Origin: a virus
DNA length: 64,000 bases
Strand: one strand, 5' to 3'
IMG/VR virus record: IMGVR_UViG_3300018426_001942
Coordinates: 64,001-128,000 of that record
Position 1 is the first letter of the stretch. Each line of letters opens with the position of its first letter. Below, piece after piece: positions 4,849 to 45,820 of the stretch. Position numbers and translations under genes: made by a program. Under the pieces are notes generated by a model. It was not told the DNA's origin. It made no database searches and saw only the letters and a program-made list of their open reading frames with translations.

Positions 4849-4854
4849 GTAGAT

Positions 4855-10548: not shown

Positions 10549-10552
10549 ACTA

Positions 10553-10590: not shown

Positions 10591-10592
10591 GG

Positions 10593-10621: not shown

Positions 10622-10652
10622 ATACATATAAATTAGAAAGGACATAGCACAC

Positions 10653-14581: not shown

Positions 14582-15352
14582 ATGACTAAATTAATTACAG
14601 ATCCCCAAAACTATACTAGAGAAGACTTAAGAAACTTAGACTGGGATATGGTAAAGTTAAATGTTACTGTAGATCCTAAGCCTTTGCTAGAATGGTTTGA
14701 AACTGTAAAAACTACTTCTCCCGAAAGTTTATTTTTATTTTCTCAAAAAGACTTATTTGAATCGCATTTACTCGATCATCCTAGAATGAACGGCATATGT
14801 GTAGGTGATGCAGGATTTTGGGCATTACAGTGGCCTATACAAAGACGTGATGCTATACCTACTCCATTCTTTTGTAATAAAGAAAAATTTCCAGAAATGT
14901 TAGACGAAACATGGGAAAATAAAATGGACAACCATCTTGAACAATATTATTTTGGTGCGTACAAGAGTATGATAGATCAATTAGGAGAAGATGCGTGGAC
15001 ATGGGGTAGAGCTATGAACTGTGCTAAGGAATGTGGCATTGGGCCACATAGAGATCACGACGGTGAAGACATGTCAGAACATATGATTCGATTACACGTT
15101 AACTTGCAAACTAACGAAAATTCATCATGGCATTTCTTTTCACAGTTAGGAGAAACACCTGCTGATACTTGGCAATACGAACGTGCAAGTTATAATCCTA
15201 AGCCTGGTGAAGTTTACCTAGTTAATGTGAGCAATGTACATGCTCCTGTAAATCACGGAGATGAAGAATGGATATTGTTACACTCTGACCCATCAAATGA
15301 CGCTGTAGATAGATTGTTAAAAAGCGAGACTCATATTACATACAATGGCTAA
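14582..15352 (+). CDS. AspH-like Fe(II)/2OG oxygenase
   Basis: PHRD...RLHVNL...VHAPVN facial triad; N-terminal WDMVKLN and WALQWP motifs shared with paralogues. Confidence 0.75.
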   Translation: MTKLITDPQNYTREDLRNLDWDMVKLNVTVDPKPLLEWFETVKTTSPESLFLFSQKDLFESHLLDHPRMNGICVGDAGFWALQWPIQRRDAIPTPFFCNKEKFPEMLDETWENKMDNHLEQYYFGAYKSMIDQLGEDAWTWGRAMNCAKECGIGPHRDHDGEDMSEHMIRLHVNLQTNENSSWHFFSQLGETPADTWQYERASYNPKPGEVYLVNVSNVHAPVNHGDEEWILLHSDPSNDAVDRLLKSETHITYNG

Positions 15353-16160
15353 CATTAAAACAAGATTAAATACTTCTATTCTTTACAAAAAGACTGACTG
15401 GCCATATCAACACGACAGCATGATTCCTAATACAAGTTCTAATTACTACGGACCTGATAACGAAAGACTACACGAGCGTAACAAAAAATATCAAGATAGT
15501 AGTTGGATATACAATAACAAAGAGATTAATTACAACTTCAACAGTTTAGGATTACGTATGTCTAATGAAGTAGATTTAACCAAAGACTTAATTTATTTTA
15601 GTGGCACAAGTTATACTTTAGGTATTGGTGTGGACGAGAAAGATAGATACACTGATATATTGTCTAAAGAACTAGACACACCTATGCTAAGTTATGCTGG
15701 TCCTACATATAGCACTAAACTACAAGTTATATCATTTTTTAATTATGTAAACTTACACGGTGCTCCAAAAAGTGCATGTTTTGAATTTCCGCCTGCACAC
15801 GGATATACATTTTTTACAGATCATTTTGCTTTTACGTTTACTGGCAGTCATAGGCCTAAATGCAATTATGTAGAACCTTATGAATTACTAGAACGTACTG
15901 ACTTCTTACAAAACGAAGCAGAAATATATGTAAACATGTTAGAAGTATTTTGTAAGACTAACAACATACCATTAACTATGTTTAGTTACTTTCCTACTAC
16001 TTTGCCTATTATACGTATTAATATTGATCTACTAGGTATCGAAGATAATAATGAAAAATTTGCTAGAGACATTTGTAAACAAAACGGTACTATATCAGGC
16101 CATCCAGGTATAGGTGTACATAGACATACAGCAGATGTATTAAAGGATAGACTACTATGA
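15345..16160 (+). CDS. SGNH/GDSL-like protein (putative acyl esterase/transferase)
   Basis: YNFNSLGLR, FSGTSYTLGIG (block I-like), C-terminal RD...GHPG..H. Confidence 0.55.
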   Translation: MANIKTRLNTSILYKKTDWPYQHDSMIPNTSSNYYGPDNERLHERNKKYQDSSWIYNNKEINYNFNSLGLRMSNEVDLTKDLIYFSGTSYTLGIGVDEKDRYTDILSKELDTPMLSYAGPTYSTKLQVISFFNYVNLHGAPKSACFEFPPAHGYTFFTDHFAFTFTGSHRPKCNYVEPYELLERTDFLQNEAEIYVNMLEVFCKTNNIPLTMFSYFPTTLPIIRINIDLLGIEDNNEKFARDICKQNGTISGHPGIGVHRHTADVLKDRLL

Positions 16161-16825
16161 GCATAACACTTTATACATCAGGTAGTACAGACGAACCTAA
16201 ACAAATAACACATTCTTGGAAATACATTAATGAATGTGCTAGACGTAGTGCTAAAGAAATACAACTAACCAGCAAGGATGTTGTACTAGATGTGTTTCCT
16301 GCTAATACTATTGCACATTGGACTATAACAGCGTATCCTAGCGTTTTAAGCGGCGCACAGTACGTTTGTAGCAACTTTACGCCATATACATACATACAAG
16401 CATTTAAACGCTTACAACCGTCTTATATTGCGCTTATACCGCGTCATTTAGAGCTTTTACAAAGTACAAAAGGCTTTAAAGACTTAGATATGAGTTGTGT
16501 ACGTTACATGGTAACAGGTAGTAATAAAATAGATCAAGACTTTATAAATGCATTTAAAAATAGAGGTGTACAGTGTGTAGCAAACTGGTATGGTATGACA
16601 GAGTTTCCGCCACCTATTCTTATAGGGTATGACAGTCCTAGTTTTGACTTGTACAATCGACCAACTGATGATCATATAATGTTTCACCCTGTATCTGCTA
16701 CATCTAATTTAGGTGAAGCAATAATAAACGGTAGGTCTACAGGTGATATCTTTGACACACAAACAATGACATTCTCGCATAGAAGAAAAGAAGCAAATGG
16801 AAAAACTTGGAAGACTGACGTTTAG
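16157..16825 (+). CDS. minimal ANL-superfamily adenylating enzyme (AMP-binding core)
   Basis: YTSGSTDEPK (P-loop, A3), WYGMTE (A5), STGD (A7); only 222 aa. Confidence 0.8.
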   Translation: MSITLYTSGSTDEPKQITHSWKYINECARRSAKEIQLTSKDVVLDVFPANTIAHWTITAYPSVLSGAQYVCSNFTPYTYIQAFKRLQPSYIALIPRHLELLQSTKGFKDLDMSCVRYMVTGSNKIDQDFINAFKNRGVQCVANWYGMTEFPPPILIGYDSPSFDLYNRPTDDHIMFHPVSATSNLGEAIINGRSTGDIFDTQTMTFSHRRKEANGKTWKTDV

Positions 16826-17342
16826 AACATTATCTAAAAATGACAGAGATGCTGTTGAGATATTTTGTAATTCTCAGTCTTATAGCAACAACACTTCTTT
16901 AGAAAAAATGAAATGGGACTGGTGCCCGTTTTGGTGTGCAGCATTTGACCAAGAACGTATTGTAAGTATTGCTGGCGCACACGAACTTCCTGAAGTATCA
17001 CCTAATGCCTATAGACTATTATTTAGAGGCGCACAATTACCAGGCTACACGTTAGGCACTGGTAGAAATATATTTAAAACTGGAATACATTTAAGTTATC
17101 TATTGCCTATACAGATTGATTGGGCAACTAAAAATCCTAACGCACAACTTTATATTAGTACTAACATCAACAACGACGGTGGCAAAAGCCAACGTATGAA
17201 TAATACTATTATGCCAATGCTTGCTAAAACAGGAATTTGGACTTTAGATCGTAAGATGGAGTTGTACAATGTTCCGCAGAACTTGTGGCGTATTAATGTT
17301 TCAAAGTATATGGAAGAGCGTAGCCGTTCGCTAAACACCTAA
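16797..17342 (+). CDS. putative GNAT-fold acyltransferase
   Basis: Beta-hairpin FWCAAFDQERIVSIAG, RLLFRGAQLPGY, LYISTN pattern; follows the adenylating enzyme. Confidence 0.45.
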   Translation: MEKLGRLTFRTLSKNDRDAVEIFCNSQSYSNNTSLEKMKWDWCPFWCAAFDQERIVSIAGAHELPEVSPNAYRLLFRGAQLPGYTLGTGRNIFKTGIHLSYLLPIQIDWATKNPNAQLYISTNINNDGGKSQRMNNTIMPMLAKTGIWTLDRKMELYNVPQNLWRINVSKYMEERSRSLNT

Positions 17343-18399
17343 AACTATATTCATCAAAGATAGTAAAAGGTTTCTTTTTAATCTCAATTTCTTTTACTTG
17401 ATTTTGCCAATAGGGCGTATTCTTACTTGTTGCTTCATAATGTAGTGCAAGAAAATCTTCAATATGTTTTACAACCTTAACATATTGTCTATTGTAAACT
17501 TTTTGTTTACCATATAATTTAACTAGCATTTCAATTTGATACTGTATTAACCAAATTGCTTGTGCTTCTAAAGGTTCAATAAATCCAGCACTTAACCCTA
17601 TGTTTAGTATATTATCTTGATATGGTGTTGGACAATATTTACTTTCCCAATGTAATACTCGCATTTTGTCTAATTCAAGAGTATACGGACACTTTTCGAT
17701 AAACTCGCGTTTAGCATCTTCAACTGTTTGATGTTCAGTGCTAAACACGTAACCATTACCAATGCGGTTTTGTAAATAAATGTTCCACATCCAACCATTA
17801 CTCATGGCAGTTGTTTCTGTATAGTACTTTAGCTCTTTATCATAACTAGGTGCTACTACAGCACAATTATTTTTAAGGCGTGTACTAACCATTTCTCTTT
17901 TAGGAAATAATTTATTAAATCCTGTACAATTAATAATTAAGTCAGCTTGTAAATCATCAATAGTATCTAATGTACGTGTTTCTAATTTAACACCATTTGG
18001 CAATGCTACTTTATCACGCAACATAATACCAAATTTATTTGCATCTATATGATATGCATGACGCCATTTTTTATCTGGTAACTCGTAGTTTTCCATCCAA
18101 TGCATTTGCTCGTCGTGTTCTGTTTCATCAAAACAAAAATGATGAAACCAACTTTCGCCGTGCCAATTTTTATGTTTAATTGTATACTTACGAACCGCAT
18201 CACAATTATCAAATAAGTCTTGCTCAGTTAATCCGCAATCATGTATAAAGTCATACATGCTAGGCAGTGTACTTTCACCTACACCTATTATAGGTATATC
18301 TTGACTTTGGATAACTGTAATATCCCAGTCGGTCTTTTTAGAAAGATATGAGGCTGTCATCCAACCTGCTGTTCCGCCGCCTACAATAATTATATTCAT
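17293..18399 (-). CDS. flavin-dependent halogenase (tryptophan halogenase family)
   Basis: GGGTAG, IGVGEST, catalytic-Lys region AVRKYTIK, HAYHIDA, GWMWNI (WxWxI), RIGNGYVF, GFIEPLEA. Confidence 0.88.
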   Translation of the reverse strand: MNIIIVGGGTAGWMTASYLSKKTDWDITVIQSQDIPIIGVGESTLPSMYDFIHDCGLTEQDLFDNCDAVRKYTIKHKNWHGESWFHHFCFDETEHDEQMHWMENYELPDKKWRHAYHIDANKFGIMLRDKVALPNGVKLETRTLDTIDDLQADLIINCTGFNKLFPKREMVSTRLKNNCAVVAPSYDKELKYYTETTAMSNGWMWNIYLQNRIGNGYVFSTEHQTVEDAKREFIEKCPYTLELDKMRVLHWESKYCPTPYQDNILNIGLSAGFIEPLEAQAIWLIQYQIEMLVKLYGKQKVYNRQYVKVVKHIEDFLALHYEATSKNTPYWQNQVKEIEIKKKPFTIFDEYSFRCLANGYALPYTLKH

Positions 18400-19571
18400 A
18401 CGTTTATTTGTGTCCTTAAAAAAATATTTATTTTTCCTATGGGTATTTTAAAATGTAAATGGATTCTATCTGTAGAACCTTTGTTAATCGTAGTGTGTAT
18501 ACGTTTTGTATTTACAATGTAAACATTATTAGGTTCTAATACATACGGGTGTTGATCAATAATAAAATGCGAATCGTTATTAGCATACAACGGAATATGT
18601 ACTCTTACATGCTCGTCTTTATCTGCGTGAGGCGGTATTCCAGAATTTTCAGGATGCCCAGTAATAACTAATTCTTCTATATAAGGAATCTGATCGTATA
18701 GTTTTTTAGCAAAACCTTTGAGCATCTTAGTAGGCTTTATAATAGGATCAAATGCTTTCTTGTCTTTACGCATACCTGGAGGCAATGGACGTTCGTCTAC
18801 ATTTTCGCAATTAGTTAATATAGCGTATCCGTATAATCCTTTTAGATTAGTTCCTGGAACTTCGGGCATTGTCCATTTTAGGTAATCAAAATTATCTACA
18901 AGGTCATTATAGTATTCTTTAAGTTCATCAAAATTAAATTTTACATTTTCTATTTTTTTGCAATCAAAATTTATTTGAGCTGGATCTAATATCCACTCTG
19001 TATTAAGTAATTCATCTACATTGTCTACAGGTATTTTAAATATTAAATGTACTCTGTCTGTGTCGCCTTGATTAATTGTACCATGTTGATTAGTAGTATT
19101 AATAAGATATGCTTTACCTTCTTGCAAATTATACTTTGAATCACCAAATACAAAATAACTTTGATTATTCGTTTGTATAGGTATATGCACTTTTACAAAC
19201 TCAGTATTATCTATATGTTGTTGTATAACTGTATCAGGTGGGTGGGCACTTATAACTGTTTGTCTAATATCAGGTATTGCATCTACAATATACTTGCCAA
19301 ACCCAAATACAAGCTCAGTAGGATTATCAAACGTACCTAATACTTCACTGTCATGTTTAATGTCATATGGCGGACAAGGCTTTGTAGTGTCTTTTAAATT
19401 ACTTTGTATAGCCCAACTGTATACATTGTTTACTTTGTGATCTAATGTATTTGTACTATCTGGTTGCCACTTTAAGTTGTCATACTGAGATACTTTAGCA
19501 TAATAGTCTTTTAGTTCTTGCAACGAAAATTTAAAGTTAGGTAATTCTTTAATATCAAAATCAAACATCAT
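18396..19571 (-). CDS. tandem two-domain AspH-like Fe(II)/2OG oxygenase
   Basis: Domain 1 QHID..KVHIP...HGTIN..DRVHL; domain 2 PHAD..RVHIP...HTTIN..DRIHL. Confidence 0.85.
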   Translation of the reverse strand: MMFDFDIKELPNFKFSLQELKDYYAKVSQYDNLKWQPDSTNTLDHKVNNVYSWAIQSNLKDTTKPCPPYDIKHDSEVLGTFDNPTELVFGFGKYIVDAIPDIRQTVISAHPPDTVIQQHIDNTEFVKVHIPIQTNNQSYFVFGDSKYNLQEGKAYLINTTNQHGTINQGDTDRVHLIFKIPVDNVDELLNTEWILDPAQINFDCKKIENVKFNFDELKEYYNDLVDNFDYLKWTMPEVPGTNLKGLYGYAILTNCENVDERPLPPGMRKDKKAFDPIIKPTKMLKGFAKKLYDQIPYIEELVITGHPENSGIPPHADKDEHVRVHIPLYANNDSHFIIDQHPYVLEPNNVYIVNTKRIHTTINKGSTDRIHLHFKIPIGKINIFLRTQINV

Positions 19572-19986
19572 GATACCTTTCTAATAGACTATAAACATGT
19601 TTGTTATGACCTCTGTCATCTATTGTTTCGTTATTATAATACTTTTTAACATAGTTGGCAACAGCAACACTTCTCGATTGTCCTTTTGCACAATATACAT
19701 GTAATGTAGCACCCTCTGGTATTTTGCGTATAAAACTTATAATTTGTTCTGCTTGTTTATCGCTACATGCTGTGGCATGTATTATTCGTTGTGTGTTATT
19801 GTACCATTGTATTGCTTTTAATCCTGTTTTTTCAACATCTTCAAATTTTAAATTTAAAACATTATCTGCATCTGCCATAACAGGCTCAGAATGTATCCAA
19901 TTACCATTACTGTGTATACCAATAAGATATTCGTTGTTAGGTATAGGGTGCATATCTTTCATTGCATATGTTTTTACATTAACCAT
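19561..19986 (-). CDS. CX5R protein tyrosine/dual-specificity phosphatase
   Basis: HVYCAKGQSRSVAVA P-loop, LKFED acid loop, NKHVY; probable start 19986. Confidence 0.85.
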   Translation of the reverse strand: MVNVKTYAMKDMHPIPNNEYLIGIHSNGNWIHSEPVMADADNVLNLKFEDVEKTGLKAIQWYNNTQRIIHATACSDKQAEQIISFIRKIPEGATLHVYCAKGQSRSVAVANYVKKYYNNETIDDRGHNKHVYSLLERYHDV

Positions 19987-20627
19987 GCTTTTACGTCCTC
20001 GATCCACACTTTACCATAAAGATGTACTCTGTCTGTTGTACCTTTGTTTTCAACACTATGAGGAAGTGTTGTGTTTACAAGATATGCCCAACCTGGTTCC
20101 ATGTGATATTCTTTACCGTTTATAATCCAATTACTATCTTTGTTAGTGTGTATAGGAATATGTACCCTAATTTTATCTGGACTGTCTTGATGTGTAATTA
20201 ATTTAGTTCCAGTTACATGCTCAGTTACTAACCATTTTTTACTACGAAAGGGTAGACTTTTAACAAGCTCTAATCCGTATCCTGTAAAACATTTTCTAGG
20301 ATTTAATTCATCATTATCATTATCCCTATACTCCGGTTTTGCACAACCTTGCTCAAAAGGTTTAGGACCTTCTTCGTCACTATTCCAGCATAACGTATAA
20401 TAACCAGTTTCGTCTGGTATAATATGTCCAGTCTCCCCAGTAGGGTCACTAATTGGAAACTGCCACACATGATGATTTTCTCCTACAACAAATTTCCAAT
20501 CTTTATAATTTTCTTGTAGATCATTATACCAATCCTGTAACTTTTTGACATCAACACAAAATATACGTTTAACGTCAAATCCTAGATCAACTGTTTGATG
20601 CTCTTCTATATATCTCTTCATTTCCAA
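19974..20627 (-). CDS. AspH-like Fe(II)/2OG oxygenase
   Basis: THQD..RVHIP...PHSVEN..DRVHL. Confidence 0.85.
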   Translation of the reverse strand: MEMKRYIEEHQTVDLGFDVKRIFCVDVKKLQDWYNDLQENYKDWKFVVGENHHVWQFPISDPTGETGHIIPDETGYYTLCWNSDEEGPKPFEQGCAKPEYRDNDNDELNPRKCFTGYGLELVKSLPFRSKKWLVTEHVTGTKLITHQDSPDKIRVHIPIHTNKDSNWIINGKEYHMEPGWAYLVNTTLPHSVENKGTTDRVHLYGKVWIEDVKAWLM

Positions 20628-21361
20628 TTAACTAAATCCATAAATTTATCATTGCGTATATCTGAAATAATATTTGCCCTTGCTGTTGGACTAAAGTTTG
20701 TAGTAGAATGTGTAACTCTTGAATTTATAATATAAACATTTCCTGGTTCAAAGTTATATTCTCTATTCCATTTTTCTCCCCAATAAAATTTACTATTGTC
20801 ATATGTCATAGGAATATGTAATCTAGCACAGTATCCGTCTGTATGCGGATGAAGTATATGCTCAGGCATGTGTTGCGTTATTCGTGGATTGTAAATATAG
20901 TTGCCTATTTCTTCTACTATAGATTTCCATTCTCCAAAATTATATTGGGTAAGATATGTATTATCATTATAATCAAAATCTTTTACAACATTACCGTCAT
21001 TATCAAAGTAACTTTTTAATTCTGTAAAAAATTCTACGTCAGCAGCCCAAGGAGGCGGAAGGGGTACATCTCTGTGAGTTGGCCAAGTTAATGTCCACGA
21101 GTTAATTAATGCTTCATATGTTTTGTTACGTTCCCATTCGTAATCATTTGTATCGGTAGTAAATTTATTATTGACAGATTCTTTTATGTACTCAGAACAT
21201 GTTTGAAAATTAAATTTTAAATAATCTAAGTTAGATGTAACAATATTATACCAATATTGTAAATTTTTTATAGCTATTTTTTTATCTAATATAATAATGT
21301 CCCATTCTAAACTTTCTAAAACTGACAGGTCAACTTGAGAAGGTTTTAGAACTTTATCCAT
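20618..21361 (-). CDS. AspH-like Fe(II)/2OG oxygenase
   Basis: PHTD..RLHIP...THSTTN...RANI. Confidence 0.82.
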   Translation of the reverse strand: MDKVLKPSQVDLSVLESLEWDIIILDKKIAIKNLQYWYNIVTSNLDYLKFNFQTCSEYIKESVNNKFTTDTNDYEWERNKTYEALINSWTLTWPTHRDVPLPPPWAADVEFFTELKSYFDNDGNVVKDFDYNDNTYLTQYNFGEWKSIVEEIGNYIYNPRITQHMPEHILHPHTDGYCARLHIPMTYDNSKFYWGEKWNREYNFEPGNVYIINSRVTHSTTNFSPTARANIISDIRNDKFMDLVNWK

Positions 21362-22103
21362 TAGTCATTCCTATTACATTTAAAATATGGTCTTCTGTTA
21401 CCCTTGTAATTATATGAGATCTATAGTCGTCACTTTCGTTAGTAGTTCCATGCCAATCTCCAGTGTTAAGAATATATGCTTTACCTTCTTTCATATGATA
21501 CGAACGTTCTTTATTTTCTCCGAAATGGAAAAAACTGTTTTTGTTGCTTTCTATTGGAATATGTAATTTAAGTACTTTACTATCTATATGTTGACGTATA
21601 TACATACCTGGATGATGTCTAGTAACAATCGCTTGTCTAAATGCATCTGATCCTAATTCTTCTACTAACTGTTTGAAATAGCCAAATTGTAATTTAGGCA
21701 TAATTTTTGCATCGTTAATAAAGTTATCATAATCTACTTCAGGATACATTTCAGCATTACACTGTGCTGGAGGAGGCAGTGCTTCGTAACGTTCTATAGG
21801 CCATGCTAAAGTTACACCATCAATTGGTCCGCAATAGTAACCGCAATACCCTTGCTCTACCATTTCTTTACTTTTTTCTAAATTAAGTTTTTCGGACATC
21901 TTGTTAAAGTTAAACAACATGTAATCAAAATTTTCTTTAACGTCAGTCCACCATGCTTTTAGACTTTCGACATCTACGTTATAATTTAGTTCAATTATAT
22001 CCCAATCGTTACTATTATATAAGAAGTCGTGCGTTAAGCCATGATTATCAGGATCGTAGTTTTTAATTATTCTCGAATCTTGGGTGTGTTGTGCGTTTTC
22101 CAT
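21354..22103 (-). CDS. AspH-like Fe(II)/2OG oxygenase
   Basis: QHID..KLHIP...WHGTTN...RSHI. Confidence 0.82.
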   Translation of the reverse strand: MENAQHTQDSRIIKNYDPDNHGLTHDFLYNSNDWDIIELNYNVDVESLKAWWTDVKENFDYMLFNFNKMSEKLNLEKSKEMVEQGYCGYYCGPIDGVTLAWPIERYEALPPPAQCNAEMYPEVDYDNFINDAKIMPKLQFGYFKQLVEELGSDAFRQAIVTRHHPGMYIRQHIDSKVLKLHIPIESNKNSFFHFGENKERSYHMKEGKAYILNTGDWHGTTNESDDYRSHIITRVTEDHILNVIGMTNG

Positions 22104-23532
22104 TTCTTAACCTTTCTCTCATATCCATTGCGACATAGTCATGCCCATATAGCACTAAGTCTTCCGGAATCATTTCTTCAAATTTAAACCAATGCTGTTC
22201 AAGTTGTTCTGGTTCTACATTCCATTGTAGCATTTCGCTTGACCAAATGTTTGTAGTCCACAGTACTTTTGTTCCTTGTACAGTATTTATTAGCTCAAAT
22301 AACTGGTTAGGTTGGGTCACTATGTCTACTACGTTAAAGGTATGTTTTAGTTGTCTGTATCTATCCCATAACTCTTTAAACGCTTCTCTACCCCCATGTT
22401 CTTTAACTTCTTGTTCCCAAAACTTTTTATAGTTTCCTCTGTAAGTACTACTAAAGTTATAACTGAGATCATGCTCTAATAACCATTTGTCTAAATCATA
22501 TCCATCCCAAGTTTCTAGCAAATGTTTTTTGTAATTTAAACTTGCTTCACACCAATCAAAATAATTTACTGTAGTGTCTTTATGAAAACCGTTCGAGTTT
22601 AGTATAGCAAGTGGCTTAAATCCAGCGGCTGCACTAAACAAATGATCAATTAATTTACCATCTGTTCTTACACCTTCACCTGATAGTGTTTCTGTGTTAA
22701 ATGCGTATACTCTATCCTTTTCTATAAATTCTTGATAGCCAAGTTTGCGTATCCAAGCCGCTTGACTTTGGTTTAGTCCATCATCTTGATCTTTGTTAAG
22801 CCATGCATTTGCAAGTTGCTGTGTATTCTCATATGGATATAAAAATACTTTACAATCACGCATGTCATTTGTTAAATTATCTATTCTTATGCCTGCTCGT
22901 ATAGCAATATCTATCCAGTTGCTTCCATCTGCTGTAATTTCAATATGGCTTTCTTGTGCGTTGTCTGCAGGACCTATCCATTCAGGAGTATAATGACTGT
23001 GTACTGTATTTTCACTAAGTTTGTAATTTTGTAGTAAAGGCTTTCTATCCTTAAATACGCCCATTTCATCAAACTTCGGCTTGCCAAGTTCTACCCATTT
23101 TTGTAAATTAACAAATAGATATTGTCTATGTAACCCAGGATACGAACCTTGAATTCCTGTTTGTGCTTCTTTGTCCATTATATGACCTATTGCAAAGAAG
23201 TCTTTATTGTTATCATAGTAATTTAAACTTTGAGTTATTAAACTAGGGCCTCTAAATAAAAGTAGTCCTTGACATGCAATCATTGCAAATTCTTTATCTT
23301 TTTGAAGACTTTGTTCTAATATTTCTTCAACAGTTTTATGAAATCCTACATAACTACACATGCCCATTTTAATCATACGATTAATATAAAAATAGGTCAT
23401 ATCAAAACATCTTTTTTGTAACCACTTATTATCTATGTCACGATTAATATTGAGTATGCCAATTCCTACTCTGTTATCAATTTTTAGATCTTCGTAATAA
23501 CGATCAATAGTAATACTATTCCAGTCTTTCAT
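22063..23532 (-). CDS. hypothetical enzyme-like protein (two-domain)
   Basis: 489-aa ORF in the oxygenase operon; GHIMD...YPGLHRQYLFVNL in the N-terminal part, SAAAGFKP...NYFD in the C-terminal part; function not recognised. Confidence 0.75.
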   Translation of the reverse strand: MKDWNSITIDRYYEDLKIDNRVGIGILNINRDIDNKWLQKRCFDMTYFYINRMIKMGMCSYVGFHKTVEEILEQSLQKDKEFAMIACQGLLLFRGPSLITQSLNYYDNNKDFFAIGHIMDKEAQTGIQGSYPGLHRQYLFVNLQKWVELGKPKFDEMGVFKDRKPLLQNYKLSENTVHSHYTPEWIGPADNAQESHIEITADGSNWIDIAIRAGIRIDNLTNDMRDCKVFLYPYENTQQLANAWLNKDQDDGLNQSQAAWIRKLGYQEFIEKDRVYAFNTETLSGEGVRTDGKLIDHLFSAAAGFKPLAILNSNGFHKDTTVNYFDWCEASLNYKKHLLETWDGYDLDKWLLEHDLSYNFSSTYRGNYKKFWEQEVKEHGGREAFKELWDRYRQLKHTFNVVDIVTQPNQLFELINTVQGTKVLWTTNIWSSEMLQWNVEPEQLEQHWFKFEEMIPEDLVLYGHDYVAMDMRERLRNGKRTTHPRFENN

Positions 23533-23533
23533 T

Positions 23534-24232: not shown

Positions 24233-24260
24233 GTTTACTTTTTTCTTTACCCCGTGTTGT

Positions 24261-24266
24261 TAAATA
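24261..24266 (+). promoter_or_regulatory. T4-like late promoter core in the divergent intergenic region
   Basis: GTTAAATA ~35 nt before GTG 24301, with AAGGAG SD. Confidence 0.5.
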
Positions 24267-24300
24267 TACTTATGCTAGTTTTTAAGGAGTATGTTTAGTC

Positions 24301-35863: not shown

Positions 35864-35869
35864 CTTATT

Positions 35870-35898
35870 ATTATACTACTTTTTTAAGAACTAGTCAA
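35870..35898 (-). promoter_or_regulatory. sigma70 promoter (probably leaderless transcript)
   Basis: Minus strand TTGACT (35898-35893), N17, TATAAT (35875-35870); ATG begins 6 nt downstream. Confidence 0.8.
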
Positions 35899-37613: not shown

Positions 37614-38721
37614 TTTGCTTCTCTATAAGTAGATTATAATTATATTCAGTGCGTTCTTTTAATTCGCTAATGAGCTTTTGATATTCCTCGGATGGTAGAT
37701 TACAAATTCTGCTTATTTCATCAACAATCATACTAAGTCTAACTTTGTTATCAATTTGTGTATTATAACTTTCATCTATTAAAGGGTCAAATGTTTTAAA
37801 CCCTAAAGCACGTAAATCGTTTAACATATATGGTGTACTAAATGCAATAAAAGGTTTCTTACATGCTATTGCCTTGTAAGTTTTTTCAGTTATACTAGTA
37901 GGAGCAAATGATCGGTCGTACTTATCATGATTTGTATAGTAAGTTTGATCGTAATGTGTTTCAATTACAATATGAAAATCTGTAGATAAAATTGTATCAT
38001 AAGTGATGTTAGACCACTTGTTTAAAACGCTTCCACTTTCTTGTAGCTCATGCGGACATTCTTTAAGCCACCTAAACATTGGTTTAGTAATTTCAAATCC
38101 TAACTTTTTAACATCTTCTTCAATTTGATAAACTTTAAATACTTTAGGTGGATTTTGATAGGGCCAAATATTAAAGAAACTGTATTTAAAATGTTCTTGT
38201 AATAAATTAGCATCAAGTAACTGAAGATATAAAGCGGCACGCCAATCTCTATAATTGCGACTAAGACTACTGAATTTGTGTGTTATTTTTGCTTCATGCG
38301 ATTCAGGTATACTAACTTCTTTTAACAAATAGTTATCAACTACAATATTACAATCTCTACCATATTGTGCTAGATAAGCATGCAAAAACCTTTTGTGGTT
38401 TTCATCCATTACGATAACTTTAATATCGTTAAAGCCTAGGCTGTTTTCACAAATAGCATCTTTGAGATCTGTCGCAAACTCTATACTAAATGTTTCACTA
38501 TCATTTTCATGAACTAGATATACATTTTTATTTTCTTTAATATGTTTCCAATTTACATCATTGACAGCGTCTTTTAAAGGTACATTGTGCATCAGCTTAT
38601 CATACGGATGATGATAATAAATTACATTGTCGCTTGTTAAGTCAACTTTTGATAAATCTTCTACATTTGAAAATTCTAGATCATGTGACCACTTTTTACC
38701 CGTTTTGCTGTATATTAGCAT
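37606..38721 (-). CDS. putative GT-B glycosyltransferase (ITEK family)
   Basis: SLSRNYRDWR; IVIET...ITEKTYKAI...PFI...GFKTF...DESY. Confidence 0.55.
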   Translation of the reverse strand: MLIYSKTGKKWSHDLEFSNVEDLSKVDLTSDNVIYYHHPYDKLMHNVPLKDAVNDVNWKHIKENKNVYLVHENDSETFSIEFATDLKDAICENSLGFNDIKVIVMDENHKRFLHAYLAQYGRDCNIVVDNYLLKEVSIPESHEAKITHKFSSLSRNYRDWRAALYLQLLDANLLQEHFKYSFFNIWPYQNPPKVFKVYQIEEDVKKLGFEITKPMFRWLKECPHELQESGSVLNKWSNITYDTILSTDFHIVIETHYDQTYYTNHDKYDRSFAPTSITEKTYKAIACKKPFIAFSTPYMLNDLRALGFKTFDPLIDESYNTQIDNKVRLSMIVDEISRICNLPSEEYQKLISELKERTEYNYNLLIEKQNG

Positions 38722-39673
38722 TTACTTGTTCCTTTATCCAGGCATAGGTATGCTTTAGTCCATACTCTAAGTCTTCATCAGGTCTCCAACCTAAAAGTTC
38801 TTCAATTAATTTATTATGACTAGTTCGACCCATAACACCTACAGGTCCGTCAACATTGTTTATTTCTAATGTATTCTTACCTGCTATTTGTGCAATTAAT
38901 TGGGCTAAGTCGTTTATTGATATCATTCTTTCGCTACCAAGGTTAACTGGTTGATCGATATCACTTGCCATAATTTTTTGAAGTCCTTTGATACACTCTT
39001 CAATATATAAAAAACTACGTGTTTGGTTACCTGGTCCCCATATATCTACTTTTCCGTTACTTTCTGCAACTTTACGACAGAGTGCCGCTGGTGCTTTTTC
39101 TTTGCCGTCATTCCAACTACCGTATGGGCCAAAGACATTGTGTAATCTTACAACCTTTGCATCTATATTGTAATTTTTTCTATGTGTTAAATACAAACGT
39201 TCACTAAACAGTTTTTCCCAGCCATATTCTGTATCTGGTTCTGCAGGATATGCACTTACTTCTTCGCAATAAGGATTATCCGGATCTAATTGATTACGTT
39301 CCGGATACACACATGCACTACTTGTGTACAAAATCTTCTTGATACCTTTTTTAGTTGCTTCGTGTAGTACGTTTAAATTTATTAATGCACTATTATGCAT
39401 TATATCGCTATCATGCTCACCTATTCCAATATATCCTGTGCCGCCCATATCTGCTGCAAGCTGATATATTTCATCTAAATCATTTCTGACAACTCCTGCT
39501 ACAAAATCAGGATTGCGCAAATCTACTTGATAGAATTCTTGTGCCCTTGTAGGTTCAAATGCAGGTTGTTTTATATCTGCACCTATCACATAATTTCCTT
39601 GCTCGACTAGTTCGTTAACTAGATGATGCCCTATGAAGCCGCCGGCTCCGCATACTAATATTTTCTTTTTCAT
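38696..39673 (-). CDS. NAD-dependent nucleotide-sugar epimerase (GDP-mannose 3,5-epimerase-like)
   Basis: GAGGFIG, QLAADMGG, SSACVYPE, YGWEK, EKAPAALCRK; probable start 39673. Confidence 0.88.
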   Translation of the reverse strand: MKKKILVCGAGGFIGHHLVNELVEQGNYVIGADIKQPAFEPTRAQEFYQVDLRNPDFVAGVVRNDLDEIYQLAADMGGTGYIGIGEHDSDIMHNSALINLNVLHEATKKGIKKILYTSSACVYPERNQLDPDNPYCEEVSAYPAEPDTEYGWEKLFSERLYLTHRKNYNIDAKVVRLHNVFGPYGSWNDGKEKAPAALCRKVAESNGKVDIWGPGNQTRSFLYIEECIKGLQKIMASDIDQPVNLGSERMISINDLAQLIAQIAGKNTLEINNVDGPVGVMGRTSHNKLIEELLGWRPDEDLEYGLKHTYAWIKEQVNANIQQNG

Positions 39674-39674
39674 C

Positions 39675-40949
39675 TTAATTCCCATATTTTTCTGTTATTA
39701 AATCTAATTCAACATCAGGTAATGTTTTTAAATGTTGAAAATTATATTCAACAATTCCTGCTACTTCTTCAGTAAATTTTATCTTACGTTCGTCCGACCA
39801 ATTTGATATTGAGTTTACAATATCACAAATTTGTTTTATGCGTTCTACTGGATCAGCAACAGTATCATAATCTTCTGACCACCAGTGATCAAAAGTTTTG
39901 AATCCCATGTCTTTTATATGTTGTAAACTTCCTTTTGCACCCATCATTATAAATGGTTGCTTATAAGCAATAGGCTTATAAGTTTTTTCTGTAATGTGTA
40001 TTTCATCAGTAAAGAAAAAAGTTTCGCTAATAATATTTATTAGGCTATTTTTAAAATAATGCTCTATTGATTCCTCAGTTGACTCCATAGGATAACTGTT
40101 AAAGTTAGGATTATCTAGCACTAACGGAAGTTTATTTTTACTAGGTAAAATATCATCTTTAGTAATATCTAAATTAGGATAACGTTTTATAAGATAATCA
40201 ACATTACTTTCGAATGATCTTCCAGACTCTGGTTGCTTGCTATCCATGCTCATATAAAATTTGTCAAGTAGTTTTAGTTTAAACATTTTAATAAAAAATG
40301 TAAGTCTGTGATCACTATACCTACGCTGAAAACATAAGAAATCTTTCTCTCTTGGTCCAATAATATACGGATCTTGTTTGAGTAGTGTTTGCTCCACGTT
40401 TGTTCTATGTATTTTAAATGTAGGAAAATATTCTACATTAATCTTAGGACCTGGTTTATTTTCTGCCCACTTATTATACAGCTCTTGTCCGTTAGCACAA
40501 TTTGTAAAATAAACAACCTTGTCTAAAGGTATTTCGTAATGATTAAAAAATTGTGTCATTACTTCCCAGTGCCTATGAGTTACCCAACCTTCAAATGGAA
40601 TGGTAACAAGTATGTATCCGTTACCATTCTGTATTTGGTCTCTAATTAACGAACTAGGCGGATTATTAACAAATGGTCCGTCAGTAGTACTAAAAAGTTT
40701 TGTCCAATCTCTATAATAATACGATGTGAAATTTAATTCGTAAAAGTATTTTTTGTCTTGTGGGATTTTAAATGCAGAAATAATTTCTCTATTTTTAAAT
40801 GACTGAAACACTACTGGTGCTTGTACATCATCATCTACGTGTCCTTCATTCATAGCATAATTTATGTCTGCTAGTGTAGGTACTCTATTGTTAGTTATTG
40901 GCCATTTAGGTCCGCACCATTTGTATGCAAAACTTAAAATTTTAGACAT
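39675..40949 (-). CDS. putative GT-B glycosyltransferase (ITEK family)
   Basis: FLCFQRRYSDHR; IISET...ITEKTYKPI...PFI...GFKTF...EDYD. Confidence 0.55.
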   Translation of the reverse strand: MSKILSFAYKWCGPKWPITNNRVPTLADINYAMNEGHVDDDVQAPVVFQSFKNREIISAFKIPQDKKYFYELNFTSYYYRDWTKLFSTTDGPFVNNPPSSLIRDQIQNGNGYILVTIPFEGWVTHRHWEVMTQFFNHYEIPLDKVVYFTNCANGQELYNKWAENKPGPKINVEYFPTFKIHRTNVEQTLLKQDPYIIGPREKDFLCFQRRYSDHRLTFFIKMFKLKLLDKFYMSMDSKQPESGRSFESNVDYLIKRYPNLDITKDDILPSKNKLPLVLDNPNFNSYPMESTEESIEHYFKNSLINIISETFFFTDEIHITEKTYKPIAYKQPFIMMGAKGSLQHIKDMGFKTFDHWWSEDYDTVADPVERIKQICDIVNSISNWSDERKIKFTEEVAGIVEYNFQHLKTLPDVELDLITEKYGN

Positions 40950-42318
40950 TACTACAATCCTTATAAAAGTTTTCTAACTCAGGAAATGTTTCAACTAAGT
41001 TAGTATCTCTACGTTTGTCATATTCAGAAAACCAAGAATAAAAATTACGTTTGCCTTTGATAATTGTTTCTTCATCATAATTTGTATTTCTCATGTAGTC
41101 TACAACCCGTCTAAATCTTTCATATTCTAAAGAACTAAATTTTGTACGGTCTTTGTCATTTACGTTTGACTCTATAAAGTTTAAGTGGTCTTCCATATAT
41201 GGCATAAACTTTTCTTTAGGCAAAATATTCATATCAAATTGTAAAGGTTCTTTTAGATACGGTGTATCAAATCTAACACGTTGCCACTGTGTTTCATTTG
41301 TATCAGTATTGTACTTTTGTCGCCATTCTAAAATCTTTACTAGTAGCAAACTAAAACTAGTAACAGCAAACAAATTAAATGTTACCATAAACGTTACAGG
41401 CCAACCTGTACTACTTAGGTAATAATCTAAATTCTTTTCCCAAAGCTCAATGTCAAGTCCGGTACGAGTATATTCTGCACGTGGTCCCCAGGTGTCAATA
41501 CTAGTATATAACTTAAAACTATTAATACAGTTTTTTGCCTTAAGATCTTTAACACGCTCTACAAGTCTATAAACCATTGCAGGCTTTACGCCCATATTAC
41601 TGTTAAGTTCTATATTAAGATGAGGTTTAGGATTTTCTTCTAATTCGTCAAACAATCGCCATGTACTCTTATGCATGAGCGGCTCACCGCCTGTAACACG
41701 CAATATGTTTAGTGTTTTACTAACTTCAGGCCACCACTTCCACCATGCATCTACATACGGATTAGTTTCTTCTTCATATAATTCAAACCAGTCAATGTCA
41801 TTTCTGTGTTCTGTGCTGTCGCTGTATGGGCCGTAATGTTTTATTTCATTATAGTATCTACTACTAAATTTTGGATGGCAATAACCGCATTTAAAATTAC
41901 ATTCATTACTAAAGTTTACTTCTATATATTCTGGATTAATATCGTAATCCCAAGGATTGCTTTTTATTTCTTCTATCCTTTCAGGAGTATAAATGCTTGT
42001 AGTCTTGATATGTCTGTCACTTACATAGTCCTTGCCCATACATTCTATATTCCAGCAATATTGACAGCCACTGGGCTTGCCTCCATTTAGCATTGCTAAC
42101 CGTTCTTGTTTTTTCTGTGGAGTATTATGTAACTGGCTCGGATTTTCATCTAACCCTTCGAGTGGAATTTTATGAGGTGCAGGATGGTAGCAACTATGTG
42201 TCTCGCCTGTTTGTAAATAAATTGTAACATGATGCCATTTTGCTAGACAAAAAGTAGGCGAGGTTTCTCTTTCTACTTTAGGCATAATTTCTTTAATCCT
42301 GATTAGCTCAGTATTCAT
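40942..42318 (-). CDS. radical SAM enzyme with N-terminal Cys/His cluster domain
   Basis: FCLAKW...HSCYH...CQYC; CNFKCGYC; TGGEP. Confidence 0.88.
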   Translation of the reverse strand: MNTELIRIKEIMPKVERETSPTFCLAKWHHVTIYLQTGETHSCYHPAPHKIPLEGLDENPSQLHNTPQKKQERLAMLNGGKPSGCQYCWNIECMGKDYVSDRHIKTTSIYTPERIEEIKSNPWDYDINPEYIEVNFSNECNFKCGYCHPKFSSRYYNEIKHYGPYSDSTEHRNDIDWFELYEEETNPYVDAWWKWWPEVSKTLNILRVTGGEPLMHKSTWRLFDELEENPKPHLNIELNSNMGVKPAMVYRLVERVKDLKAKNCINSFKLYTSIDTWGPRAEYTRTGLDIELWEKNLDYYLSSTGWPVTFMVTFNLFAVTSFSLLLVKILEWRQKYNTDTNETQWQRVRFDTPYLKEPLQFDMNILPKEKFMPYMEDHLNFIESNVNDKDRTKFSSLEYERFRRVVDYMRNTNYDEETIIKGKRNFYSWFSEYDKRRDTNLVETFPELENFYKDCSNV

Positions 42319-43205
42319 CTTTTCTTAATTATCCTCGGTGTGTTTTGATACACACTTTTAAAAAATCTACTACCTTGTGCATCTAGGTCTGATATTTCTA
42401 AATCTAATTCATTACGCAAATTATTACCGTACTTAAAACTTTCAGATTTAACATCAAGTTCACTTACTTTTTCTTCTTTCCAATAATTTGTTAGGTATTT
42501 AAAATCTCTTACATTAGTATAGTCCCAATCTGTACACATTGTCATGTAACAGCCCATTCTTGCACCAAGTATACTCCAATCTCCATACTCTACATCTGCT
42601 CCAACAGTACACCATATACGCAATCTATCTAAGTTTTGCCACCAAACTTTTTTTATGTCAGTTGCTTTGGCACCTTCGTTAAGGCTCATTTTAACGCCTT
42701 CGCGAAATCCTGCTCTCCAAGCCTGAAATGGAGACCCGTTTGTATAACTTACTGAATAATTATCATTAAATTGATAATATTTTTCGTCAAAACAAAACTC
42801 TACAAGTCCTTTCGTATCGTCTGGATTTGAATTTTCATGTGTTTTCATATTATGGACGAACTTACGAGTCCACATTTTTAATCCACCATTGCCGTACATA
42901 AGTCCGTTAACGTGAACTTTGCCACACCAACTAAAAACATAGTCTTCAGTGACGCCTAACTTTTCTAAATCAATTTCTTGCTGTAAAAATTCAGTGTCTA
43001 TTATGTTGTCACCGTCAACTGTGACAAAATATTCTGTTTCACTTAGATCTGCACATGCCTTGTGTGCGGCATCTGATCCGTCTACACCATGAACACGCTT
43101 TGCCCAAGGCAACTTGTTACACAAGTCTGCATAGTTTTTTTCAGCATTTGGTTCGTCATAAGATAAAAAGATAATATCTTGATCAATGACTTTGATTTTA
43201 CTCAT
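42315..43205 (-). CDS. glycosyltransferase-like protein (GT-A), paralogue of the C-terminal domain of 34187-35863
   Basis: FLSYDEPNA, AHKACA, VTVDGDN, YGNGGLK, AWRAGFREG. Confidence 0.7.
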   Translation of the reverse strand: MSKIKVIDQDIIFLSYDEPNAEKNYADLCNKLPWAKRVHGVDGSDAAHKACADLSETEYFVTVDGDNIIDTEFLQQEIDLEKLGVTEDYVFSWCGKVHVNGLMYGNGGLKMWTRKFVHNMKTHENSNPDDTKGLVEFCFDEKYYQFNDNYSVSYTNGSPFQAWRAGFREGVKMSLNEGAKATDIKKVWWQNLDRLRIWCTVGADVEYGDWSILGARMGCYMTMCTDWDYTNVRDFKYLTNYWKEEKVSELDVKSESFKYGNNLRNELDLEISDLDAQGSRFFKSVYQNTPRIIKKR

Positions 43206-43773
43206 TTACTACCTCGCAAGAATACTTCTGAAACCTTCTATTAGTATATACACTAAAATCTTCAAGATTAAACTGAGTCTGGCTGTTAAACTCGAGTTCA
43301 TTATCGATTAAATGCTCTACTGTAGTGGTAAAATATTCGTGCAAGATATTCGGATTATTCTTCTGCGTAACAGAAAACCTTAAATTTTGATTTATTCTTT
43401 CTTTTTTATCTTCTAGTTCTAGTTTTGCCTCGTCTGATAAAGAAATATTCCACAAATTTTGTTTTGTTTTGTATTTTACTATAACTTGAGCATTATTTGT
43501 TGGAATAATTTTATACACATTATCATTAACATCTGACTCAATTTTCTTATTCTTAGATACAATTACATAAGATGATGTTCCGACATCATAAACAACTTTG
43601 TGCGTTGTTATACTTTTGTTGCCGTCTAGAAAATCACGTATATCTTCAATTTGTGCCGGGAAAGAGCTCTCAAATTCCTGTTCTATGTTAGATATAGATT
43701 TAATATCTCCTGTATCTTTATCAAAATATACCTTATGTTTGATTTCAAATTTAGGTGTCTGTAGTACAATCAT
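43198..43773 (-). CDS. hypothetical protein
   Basis: 191-aa ORF overlapping both neighbours. Confidence 0.7.
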   Translation of the reverse strand: MIVLQTPKFEIKHKVYFDKDTGDIKSISNIEQEFESSFPAQIEDIRDFLDGNKSITTHKVVYDVGTSSYVIVSKNKKIESDVNDNVYKIIPTNNAQVIVKYKTKQNLWNISLSDEAKLELEDKKERINQNLRFSVTQKNNPNILHEYFTTTVEHLIDNELEFNSQTQFNLEDFSVYTNRRFQKYSCEVVNE

Positions 43774-44606
43774 ATATCTAACCTCTTTTCTAGTATACTC
43801 AAAATGTCATCTGTTAAGAAACTATCTTCAGTGTAATGGAAAATACCAGTTTGCTTGTAATTACCAATAAAAAGTTCTGCTTGATTTGTAAAATATGAGC
43901 CAACTTTCGTTTGCCAACTCTCACGAATATCATTCCAGCCTTGTATGTTTGCTTTCATGTGTGTAAATGAAGGATTAGGTAAATTAGGATTAGTAACTTT
44001 TGACTTACAGTCAAGCATATCTACAGTCATTGCTGCCGTTAAATCCATACTTGCAAAATTTTGTATTAATTTATCGCCCTTAACCTTATAAAAATCCTGC
44101 CAATTGTTAGTAATAGTATCTAACCATTTGTAAAATTCAAGTGCAAAATCACTTTTCTTAAAATAATGGAAACCCATGTACACATCAGGTAAATGTAACT
44201 TTTTAAAATTACGTCTATAAAATGTATCTGTAACTCTTTCACCTCTGTAATCATAAACTGTTGACGTTAGAAACATATCATAAGGTTGTAAAATTTCCAT
44301 CCAACTTGTAATATCGTCTAACACTAACATGTCTGTGTCTAACACTATTGCATCATCATAAGGAGATATAAAGTAAGTTTTCCATCTATTGTGTATTTTC
44401 CAATCATACTTGTTTGCTAAGTCGCCCCATGGTATTTCAATAATGTTATCAAACAGGTCTTTGTATTTTTCAGGCACAACATTATCGGTTAGAATACTAA
44501 TTTTAGAATTAGGAGTAGTGTTGTGTATGCTCATAGCAAGAGCACATGCTTGCTGCACGTAATCAACATGTTCAGTATTTTGTGCAACTAGAATAAAATT
44601 AGGCAT
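43770..44606 (-). CDS. GT-A glycosyltransferase (GT8-like)
   Basis: YVQQACALAMSI, SPYDDAIVLDTD (DxD), FTHMK, FHY. Confidence 0.75.
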   Translation of the reverse strand: MPNFILVAQNTEHVDYVQQACALAMSIHNTTPNSKISILTDNVVPEKYKDLFDNIIEIPWGDLANKYDWKIHNRWKTYFISPYDDAIVLDTDMLVLDDITSWMEILQPYDMFLTSTVYDYRGERVTDTFYRRNFKKLHLPDVYMGFHYFKKSDFALEFYKWLDTITNNWQDFYKVKGDKLIQNFASMDLTAAMTVDMLDCKSKVTNPNLPNPSFTHMKANIQGWNDIRESWQTKVGSYFTNQAELFIGNYKQTGIFHYTEDSFLTDDILSILEKRLDI

Positions 44607-45426
44607 CTATTATTTCCTCTAATGCATATTTGTTCATTACATGCACACTATTTCCTAAAAACTTACAAGGAATAAATTGATCAATAGTATTTTCTTTTTG
44701 TAGTAAGAACGTAAATTTATCATCTTGAATACTGTGAACTAAATCTCTATCCGCCGTAAAAAACAATTTACCCGGCATTGACTTTGCAAAATTTCCTTGC
44801 TTAAAATTGTTCATTATATGAATTGCAATACTAAAAGCATAATCGTTTCTATAAGTTGTGGAGACAATATTATAAACATTTCTATAGTGTCTATAATTTT
44901 CCTGTATATGCTTTAATAAATTAAAAAAAGTTCTATTTAATTCTGTTTTTCTAAAAAATACACAAGTAGCCCAATAAAAATCTACACTTGTTTCACTTAT
45001 AAATTTAAATTCACTTGTATCTCTTGATGCTAGATCAATAGCATCTTTGTAAATTAAAAAGTCATAGGCACTATCATAAGCATTTTTTAATATGCTATCT
45101 GCAATAACATAATCACTATCTAGTACTATAGTTTCATCATACGGACTAAGATCAAAAGCAAGTACCCTATCATCATTTTTGAAATCTAAAACTTTGTGTG
45201 TCTTTGCACTATTGTAAAAATATTTCTTGCTGGACTCAACTGTGATATCATTTATAATAATTTTATCAAATACATCTTTATACCTGTCATTAATGCTCTG
45301 TTTATCTGTAACTATAGAAACAGGAATAGACAAATATTGTTCAGCACGTTTTGCAAGAAAAGCTGCTTGCTTTACATAATCAATTTCACTGTTATTATGT
45401 GCAAAAACAAGAATACCTTTACTCAT
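44599..45426 (-). CDS. GT-A glycosyltransferase (GT8-like), paralogue of the downstream gene
   Basis: DYVKQA, SPYDETIVLDSD (DxD), RNDYAFSIA, HVMNK; probable start 45426. Confidence 0.75.
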   Translation of the reverse strand: MSKGILVFAHNNSEIDYVKQAAFLAKRAEQYLSIPVSIVTDKQSINDRYKDVFDKIIINDITVESSKKYFYNSAKTHKVLDFKNDDRVLAFDLSPYDETIVLDSDYVIADSILKNAYDSAYDFLIYKDAIDLASRDTSEFKFISETSVDFYWATCVFFRKTELNRTFFNLLKHIQENYRHYRNVYNIVSTTYRNDYAFSIAIHIMNNFKQGNFAKSMPGKLFFTADRDLVHSIQDDKFTFLLQKENTIDQFIPCKFLGNSVHVMNKYALEEIIDA

Positions 45427-45766
45427 TAAAGATGCCTTCAACTGATCGTTGCTTTTTGATTTTATTGTATTCGGTGAAATACTTGTTAGAGGCTTCTGCG
45501 TATGTTTTTACAAGATTATTTGTAAACCTTGGTAAATCATCTACAAGAATAGGAATGCCATTATCATCTGTAAGTACAATTTGATCTTGTTCTAAACTTA
45601 CTAGACTTTGACAAAAACTAATTAGTTCTTTAGAGGATGTAAACTGACAGCCGCTTTCGTAATGTATTAAGTCTGATTGATATTGTTGCTGTAAAAGATT
45701 CTTTTGTTGATTTATAATGTCAAGTAATTTACTTGCTTCAAGTGCTTTTGCTAATTTTTCGTCCAT
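45419..45766 (-). CDS. hypothetical protein (first gene of the glycosylation operon)
   Basis: 115 aa, GGAGA SD, directly downstream of a consensus promoter. Confidence 0.8.
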   Translation of the reverse strand: MDEKLAKALEASKLLDIINQQKNLLQQQYQSDLIHYESGCQFTSSKELISFCQSLVSLEQDQIVLTDDNGIPILVDDLPRFTNNLVKTYAEASNKYFTEYNKIKKQRSVEGIFNE

Positions 45767-45791: not shown

Positions 45792-45820
45792 ATTATACAC
45801 TATCAGGCTTTGATTGTCAA
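45792..45820 (-). promoter_or_regulatory. consensus sigma70 promoter
   Basis: Minus strand TTGACA (45820-45815), N17, TATAAT (45797-45792). Confidence 0.9.

Follow-up and report, generated by a model that had tools for sequence, protein, structure and literature searches.

What the modifying enzymes beside a phage's tail genes act on is the question raised by a 31-kb block in the virus record IMGVR_UViG_3300018426_001942. The block occupies positions 14582-45766 of the window, by which we mean the whole 64,000-nucleotide stretch analyzed here, bases 64,001-128,000 of a 151,964-bp linear record. Because that record is an estimated 43% complete, it appears to belong to a jumbo myovirus of roughly 350 kb. 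Open reading frames (ORFs) are named by their window start coordinate (e.g., 49824, 45419). A sequence-only reading had treated the block as one pathway that hydroxylates Asp/Asn/Ser/Thr-rich fibers and then glycosylates and further decorates them. We find that the block is two things, an invariant core and a swappable island. On the evidence of gene content and order, we think it somewhat more probable than not that the core is encoded by the phage to glycosylate, in the cytoplasm, a virion appendage of the 49824/46299 family.

An invariant glycosyltransferase core

To compare relatives we anchored 80 viral loci on 44599; the loci are kin and non-independent, and each count covers those long enough to score. 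Gene order is fixed, running from the tail operon through one or two 49824-family genes to 45419, 44599, 43770, 43198, 42315 and then radical SAM enzymes. The 49824-family gene lies upstream of the core in 60/60 loci. On the minus strand of the window, the core begins with the 115-residue 45419 (45419-45766), found in 77/77 loci and in distant loci as well. It continues with two paralogous glycosyltransferase family 8 (GT8)-like proteins carrying DxD motifs (43770-45441; 76/76), 43198 (43198-43773; 69/69) and a GT-A-fold protein with DxD (42315-43205; 55/55), and the next element is a radical SAM enzyme in 48/48, here the N-terminal-twitch protein 40942 (40942-42318). These genes form the invariant core, which probably also includes a second GT-A protein, 34187 (34187-35863, minus strand), and the methyltransferase-like 30933. 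Other genes are optional, with ITEK proteins in 34/48 loci, an epimerase in 20/48 and 37020 in 7/48. The proposed linkage between the block and structural genes is lineage-wide in this comparison.

The core order persists in three distant phage loci at glycosyltransferase (GT) identities of 28-32%. In the distant locus L376 the tail operon lies elsewhere and small ORFs surround the 49824-family gene and the core; the tightest link is therefore that of the 49824-family gene with the core. In some relatives the last GT-As and a methyltransferase-like domain are fused into one GT-A/GT-A/methyltransferase protein of 1000-1200 residues. Among cultured phages, the core genes match only the Ralstonia phage RsoM2USA (343,806 bp), which has been grouped with XacN1 (PMC8504454). 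It keeps eight of them (45419, both GT8s, 43198, 42315, 40942 at 37% identity, the catalytic part of 34187, and 30933), which together with a fusion protein described below make up its ORFs 347-355. The core is common to this soil Ralstonia phage and to marine phages.

Searching 50,697 phage records by tblastn for the core GTs or the 49824 domain returned RsoM2USA only. At tblastn sensitivity, the complete genomes of XacN1, Xoo-sp13, CM1, RAS14, PA5oct-like phages, Atu_ph07 and Phosso gave no core GTs. A GTDB scan produced only three matches, two of them plainly phage contigs. Two contigs of a Neomarinimicrobiota metagenome-assembled genome, L368 (PBPT01000082.1, 153 kb) and L369 (PBPT01000016.1, 335 kb), carry the tail operon and core; both are probably genomes of jumbo phages that were binned with it, and L369 may be nearly complete. 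The lone 43770 homologue in a bacterial context (L377:1-10140, GCA_042264125.1) is surrounded by radical SAM, aminotransferase, 2-oxoglutarate (2OG)-oxygenase, phosphatase and ABC-transporter genes.

A swappable island

The block as first described exists, although it holds 35 ORFs rather than about 33. It is compact (31/34 junctions overlap and the widest gap is 68 nt), has a GC content of 0.33 against 0.37 and 0.36 in its flanks, and includes three strand switches and several promoters. As proposed, it lies between a fiber-like gene (13439-14524, plus strand; Pfam Mtd_N, PF18454, E 3e-11), which marks the left boundary in island and empty alleles, and the tail operon from 46299. What was not borne out is the idea of a single 31-kb pathway.

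The predicted hypervariability of the block is evident in its relatives. Five long records have blocks of 18, 28, 31, 50 and 53 kb; in all of them the GTs lie closest to the tail operon, the radical SAMs occupy the center and the oxygenases lie toward the Mtd_N gene, at the far and most exchanged end. Even phages that are nearly identical have exchanged the distal end: L092 and L093 have near-identical flanks and wholly different distal content. In L107, an island 93-99% identical stands behind a flank at 61%. Distal ends of relatives also contain B12 radical SAMs, TauD, and aminotransferases of the DegT type.

Measured against the window, L107 and L108 are mosaic, with a flank at 61% and most island genes at 88-99%, while their SGNH-like gene and halogenase are just 40-42% identical; the pattern suggests cassette transfer with single-gene replacement. 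Among 208 ORFs scanned in relatives' islands (G006-G010, L088-L167), nine are desaturases, and the same islands hold TctA, porin, outer-membrane-protein barrel, IMPDH-like, subtilase and alginate-lyase-like genes.

A candidate acceptor travels with the core

The gene that accompanies the core, 49824 (49824-50837, minus strand), encodes a candidate acceptor that is present and absent together with it. Its neighbor 46299 (46299-49799, minus strand), also a candidate, joins a 49824-family domain to a variable Ser/Thr/Gly-rich extension of about 770 residues; it is 42% identical to 49824 and 52-67% identical among close kin. A model of 49824 (pLDDT 84) shows N-terminal helices and a beta-sandwich. 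In RsoM2USA, ORF355 lies directly before the core and fuses a fiber N-domain to a full 49824 domain (E 1e-28). Its N-terminal module is one annotated tail fiber in PA5oct, and XacN1, Xoo-sp13, CM1, RAS14, PA5oct, Atu_ph07 and Phosso match ORF355 only in this shared fiber N-domain. The fusion to a tail-fiber-type module argues that the 49824 family is a virion appendage; that the family accepts the glycan, rather than holding the product in the manner of a lectin, is our inference.

The sequence-only reading had placed the acceptor among genes outside the locus, and the likeliest acceptor, 49824/46299, instead adjoins and travels with the core. Its view of the fibers as rich in Asp, Asn, Ser and Thr held for Ser/Thr, which makes up 21.5% of 46299 and 21.7% of 49824 against 13.6% genome-wide. 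Asp/Asn enrichment was rejected, as the fibers contain 12.8-16.3% against a genome background of 14.4%. Coupled to 46299 is a 160-residue ORF (45817-46299) that some close kin have and others lack; it is 46-49% identical in kin, compared with about 80% for its neighbors.

In empty-site relatives, the Mtd_N gene abuts the homologue of the fiber-type gene 50848 (50848-52347, minus strand), and the locus contains neither the island nor the core nor any 49824-family gene. The fiber proteins of these phages are longer: 50848 homologues have 856-885 residues (14 distinct long proteins) versus 486-506 in island phages, those of 52392 have 719-767 versus 599-636, and Mtd_N is usually longer too. In a short-marker tree the empty-site phages are nested among island carriers, which needs two changes, and a single origin of the empty site may have spread by recombination. 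No complete empty-site genome was found among the relatives. Ser/Thr contents of fibers in island and empty-site phages (17.3 vs 15.9, 18.3 vs 15.7 and 19.2 vs 18.0%) were left unused because the differences are small, overlapping and phylogenetically non-independent.

Promoters of the core

A sigma70-consensus promoter, TTGACA-17-TATAAT, precedes the core (45792-45820, minus strand), and another precedes 34187 (35870-35898, minus strand). The motif TAAATA, which probably serves as a late promoter in phage CBB (PMC5259590), lies upstream of the structural genes 50848 (47/47 relatives), 56290 (33/33) and Mtd_N (37/37), and in the window it occurs 25 nt upstream of 14582 and 40 nt upstream of 24301. 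It stands alone ahead of the core in 7/55 regions, including RsoM2USA and one marine clade. Cotranscription of the core with the late fiber operon was rejected for most loci, since a sigma70 consensus lies upstream of the core in 46/55 distinct regions. Given these distinct promoters, the core constitutes a separate transcription unit. An earlier onset of expression fits the stocking of enzymes before assembly as well as it fits host remodeling, and the late-type promoter in some lineages favors the virion as target.

Enzymes of the block

Enzyme assignments are supported by Pfam, NCBIfam, PDB, structure or paralogy for 20 of the 35 ORFs. Ten more have motifs or weak matches only, namely 28992, 35884, 37606, 39675 and the kinase, phosphatase, two methyltransferases, SGNH and GNAT proteins, all of which the sequence-only reading had listed as enzymes. 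The remaining five (22063, 25740, 26965, 43198, 45419) have no enzyme evidence; 25740 and 26965 are paralogous and weakly Kelch-like, and 45419 is a possible adaptor. PHROGs, Pfam and PDB searches gave no assignment for 22063, 43198, 45419, 45817, 15345 or 16797. An Atlas search matched 22063 and 49824 to unnamed viral clusters only, with a further lead for 22063, at 0.84, to an AspH fusion.

About seven glycosyltransferases had been expected. Four GT-A-type proteins with DxD are supported: 44599, 43770, 42315 and the C-terminal part of 34187. The 43770 profile matches glycogenin (E 1.6e-6), and glycogenins, which glycosylate protein, are its only PDB sequence matches; 44599 is its paralogue (hhalign 99.7%). 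A model of 42315 has a GT-A fold (AlphaFold2 pLDDT 81.5, Foldseek probability 1.0, VIA Z 10.2), and the C-terminal part of 34187, which follows N-terminal repeats, is a paralogue of it (BLAST E 2e-21). The other three, 35884, 37606 and 39675, are paralogues sharing a conserved ITEK motif that gave no Pfam, PHROG or PDB match; they may be GT10-like. They lie in a variable sugar cassette (35884-40949, minus strand) with the methyltransferase-like 37020 and the epimerase-like 38696. PDB sequence searches with profiles of 44599, 42315, the ITEK trio and 30933 gave no match. Both nucleotide-sugar enzymes of the original list stand, 38696 resembling GDP-mannose 3,5-epimerase (E 2e-87) and 32501 being an NDP-sugar dehydrogenase by database match.

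The six radical SAM enzymes each have CxxxCxxC and the additional cysteines noted previously. Three pass the 170-bit cut-off of the N-terminal-twitch family NF033640 (24301 at 225, 29645 at 408 and 40942 at 315 bits), with an N-terminal Cys cluster ahead of CxxxCxxC. Four of the six are encoded at 28072-34194 (minus strand) with the oxygenase-like 28992, 30933 and 32501, and 24301 begins a plus-strand group (24301-28107) that continues with a weakly kinase-like gene and the two paralogous propeller-like proteins. Two distal cassettes complete the block. The plus-strand one (14582-17342) contains AspH-like, SGNH-like (by motif), partial AMP-binding and putative GNAT-like genes and is swapped among close kin; that on the minus strand (17293-24232) contains the flavin halogenase, five AspH-like genes with six domains, a CX5R phosphatase-like gene and 22063. 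Pfam (PF04820, E 3.6e-72) and the GxGxxG and WxWxI motifs agree on the halogenase. Six of the seven proposed AspH-like genes are supported, four above the PF05118 cut-off, 20618 weakly and 14582 by paralogy (E 3.5e-22), and the HxD...H triad is present; the seventh, 28992, is assigned by motif alone. Their closest PDB match is weak (E 0.01). The proposed adenylation enzyme (16157-16825, 222 residues) does match the AMP-binding family but spans only positions 168-329 of the 384 in the model, and because similar short lengths recur in relatives we do not regard it as a pseudogene.

By hydropathy, no block ORF has a convincing transmembrane or signal segment; the maxima are three 19-residue windows at 1.8-1.9, two of them within radical SAM cores. 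Family, PDB and hydropathy searches of the block found no flippase, polymerase or ligase. No precursor peptide, carrier or scaffold synthase was seen among ORFs of at least 70 residues, shorter overlapping ORFs not having been searched.

What the core may modify

The glycosylation reading draws on GT-A fold and family, gene order, co-presence and co-absence with the partner, the 49824-domain fusion and the separate promoter. Under it, the core would be made from its own promoter, and the glycogenin-like GT8 pair would prime Ser, Thr or Tyr on the appendage. The two 42315-type GT-As (42315 and 34187) would lengthen the chain, and the twitch radical SAM enzyme could epimerize, oxidize or deoxygenate a sugar, for which BtrN, NeoN and AprD4 are precedents (PMC13707489). 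A sugar might be methylated by 30933, as described for PBCV-1 A064R (PMC9614988). From its family, 38696 would make GDP-L-galactose or GDP-L-gulose available to optional transferases. The leftward cassettes (GDP-L-sugar supply, radical SAMs, oxygenases, halogenase, and acyl and phospho enzymes) would diversify the coat, some of them probably being unrelated passengers. Phages without the unit would carry longer protein fibers in its place. Since empty-site phages have longer fibers, we also entertain, as a doubtful extension, that in a widespread jumbo-phage lineage appendage glycans or polysaccharide hairs are remodeled by as many as about a dozen radical SAMs with the oxygenases and halogenase, such that an exchangeable coat replaces fiber length in host recognition.

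Several observations weigh against glycosylation of the appendage. The core glycan and the enzyme activities are predictions, and the fold of 49824 has no named structural match (best VIA Z 6.0), so that calling it a virion appendage relies on its context and a single fusion. For 42315, Foldseek ties peptide GTs with the teichoic-acid GT TarP and PBCV-1 A64R, and under VIA nucleotidyltransferases are tied as well. The ten major bands that were identified for RsoM2USA did not include ORF355 (PMC8504454). Empty-site contigs are 8-15% complete, which leaves room for relocation of the core elsewhere, and they represent only one or two events in the tree. The sigma70 class found before most cores also precedes clamp-like and FolE-like genes in this genome, and relatives' islands carry fatty-acid desaturases, TctA, porin and IMPDH.

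Some of these points would also suit a core and island that remodel the envelope of the infected host (O-antigen, lipid A, glycolipid or capsule) and thereby exclude competing phages. The GT8 and AspH families include lipopolysaccharide (LPS)-core GTs and LpxO; the conserved sigma70 promoter and the desaturases, porin and TctA point the same way, and analogous clusters have been so read in print (PMC7029224, PMC7824862). We nevertheless consider envelope remodeling unlikely: the block lacks transmembrane segments, flippase, polymerase and ligase, and its core stays the same in phages from unrelated habitats, is linked to a phage gene of structural type and is lost together with the 49824-family gene. 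Somewhat less probable still is that only the core is a pathway and the distal 20 kb a recombination hotspot collecting unrelated auxiliary cassettes, an idea compatible with the favored reading of the core. The strand switches and multiple promoters, the L092/L093 and L107 exchanges and the non-tailoring passengers all suit a hotspot, but the empty allele drops the distal genes together with the core, and the order of GT, radical SAM and oxygenase genes recurs in 5/5 long relatives.

A diffusible halogenated or hydroxylated metabolite, as proposed for cyanophage arrays (PMC2938197, PMC7824862), would account for the halogenase, adenylation-type protein and oxygenases and for the bacterial 43770 homologue, which lies among tailoring genes and an ABC transporter. 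It is improbable, given that the block has neither scaffold synthase nor exporter, that the AMP-binding protein covers part of its family model only, and that the tie to the 49824 family is left unexplained. The least probable target is phage DNA or tRNA, hypermodified by oxygenase and then glycosyltransferase. That logic is known from the glycosylation of 5-hydroxymethylcytosine, and the core shares sigma70 timing with replication genes; yet the oxygenases are AspH-type rather than TET/JBP, the RsoM2USA core lacks them, some lineages have a late-type promoter, and a separate QueD/FolE/QueE-like cluster, identified by motif, lies at 110-5739.

Glycosylation of the virion appendage retains from the sequence-only reading its structural linkage, hypervariability, apparently soluble enzymes and virion-protein partner, and sheds the single pathway, the role of Asp/Asn and hydroxylation as the priming step. 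An AspH query found no match in RsoM2USA and Asp/Asn in fibers is at background, so a hydroxylation-first step is not needed; the oxygenases, moreover, occupy the most exchanged end.

Other features of the genome

The QueD-, FolE- and QueE-like genes, recognized by motif in the window (110-5739) and in L005:3653-5194, are accompanied by a glycosyltransferase-like gene (815-1861) and a 513-residue possible TGT-like gene whose product has no NCBIfam match. They form a probable 7-deazaguanine pathway separate from the block. At 9463-11945, a MoxR-like AAA+ ATPase gene is followed by a VWA/metallopeptidase-like gene (by motif), with a sigma70 consensus between them. Elsewhere in the genome, a 76-residue ORF (G000:C1:42530-42760; L004:2530-2760) looks by eye like an acyl carrier whose usual phosphopantetheine Ser is apparently replaced (DEID for DSLD); it adjoins IscU-, ferredoxin-, DnaJ-, deformylase- and ClpA-like genes. 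Giant structural-type ORFs encode 5,005 residues (window 56932 to G000:C1:135949) and 2,983 residues (G000:C1:3423-12374).

Comparison with known systems

Annotations of enzyme islands next to phage tail genes go back years, and they usually name host LPS as the target without a test. Fiber-adjacent islands of GTs and radical SAMs (PMC7029224) and dioxygenase-halogenase arrays (PMC2938197, PMC7824862) are already known, and virion glycosylation in tailed phages has been published (as related in PMC11256854). Our literature search turned up no account of the core described here, of the gene that partners it or of an empty allele. With an eight-gene core, a candidate acceptor and a cultured carrier, RsoM2USA, the question of virion versus host becomes answerable by mass spectrometry. 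If glycosylation of the virion is correct, N-twitch radical SAMs would gain their first assigned role, as would GT and methyltransferase families that are very large but lack annotation; the 43770 family comprises 221 clusters at 50% identity (E up to 1e-30), and 30933 has at least 3,940 homologues. Three window ORFs pass the NF033640 cut-off, and these loci provide that family with a genomic context.

A close parallel is the host-recognition cluster (HRC) of pelagiphages and cyanomyophages, a hypervariable island of about 34-45 kb beside the tail fibers (Zaragoza-Solas 2020, PMC7029224). Both are fiber-adjacent and hypervariable, with GT8-type glycosyltransferases and radical SAM cassettes acquired stepwise. 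The HRC apparently belongs to another phage lineage with other GT families, none of those phages was matched among the 50,697 records, and it has been read as modifying the host O-chain (PMC7029224); the system described here differs in its invariant core, which is linked to a single gene of structural type, and in the existence of an empty allele. The cyanophages Syn9 and S-SSM6a also combine tryptophan halogenases with tandem 2OG-Fe oxygenases (PMC2938197, PMC7824862), whereas the array in the window is of AspH type, is optional and is joined to a core of GTs.

Virion glycosylation is reported, with the glycan shown, for mycobacteriophages including Che8 (Freeman 2023, as cited in PMC11256854 and PMC12619734). 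There too phage-encoded GTs are proposed to glycosylate virion proteins, but those GTs number two or a few and have capsid and tail tube as targets; the system in the window differs by its predicted tailoring with radical SAM and methyltransferase enzymes, by its large variable island and by another candidate acceptor. The moraphages are apparently another lineage (PMC12619734). Chloroviruses and Mimivirus share cytoplasmic GTs, nucleotide-sugar enzymes, GT-GT-methyltransferase fusions and clade-specific clusters, and our relatives' GT-A/GT-A/methyltransferase fusions resemble the architecture of PBCV-1 A064R. Those viruses differ in infecting eukaryotes and in having chemically determined glycans, and the passages of PMC9614988 from which these comparisons are drawn report no expansion of twitch radical SAM enzymes in them.

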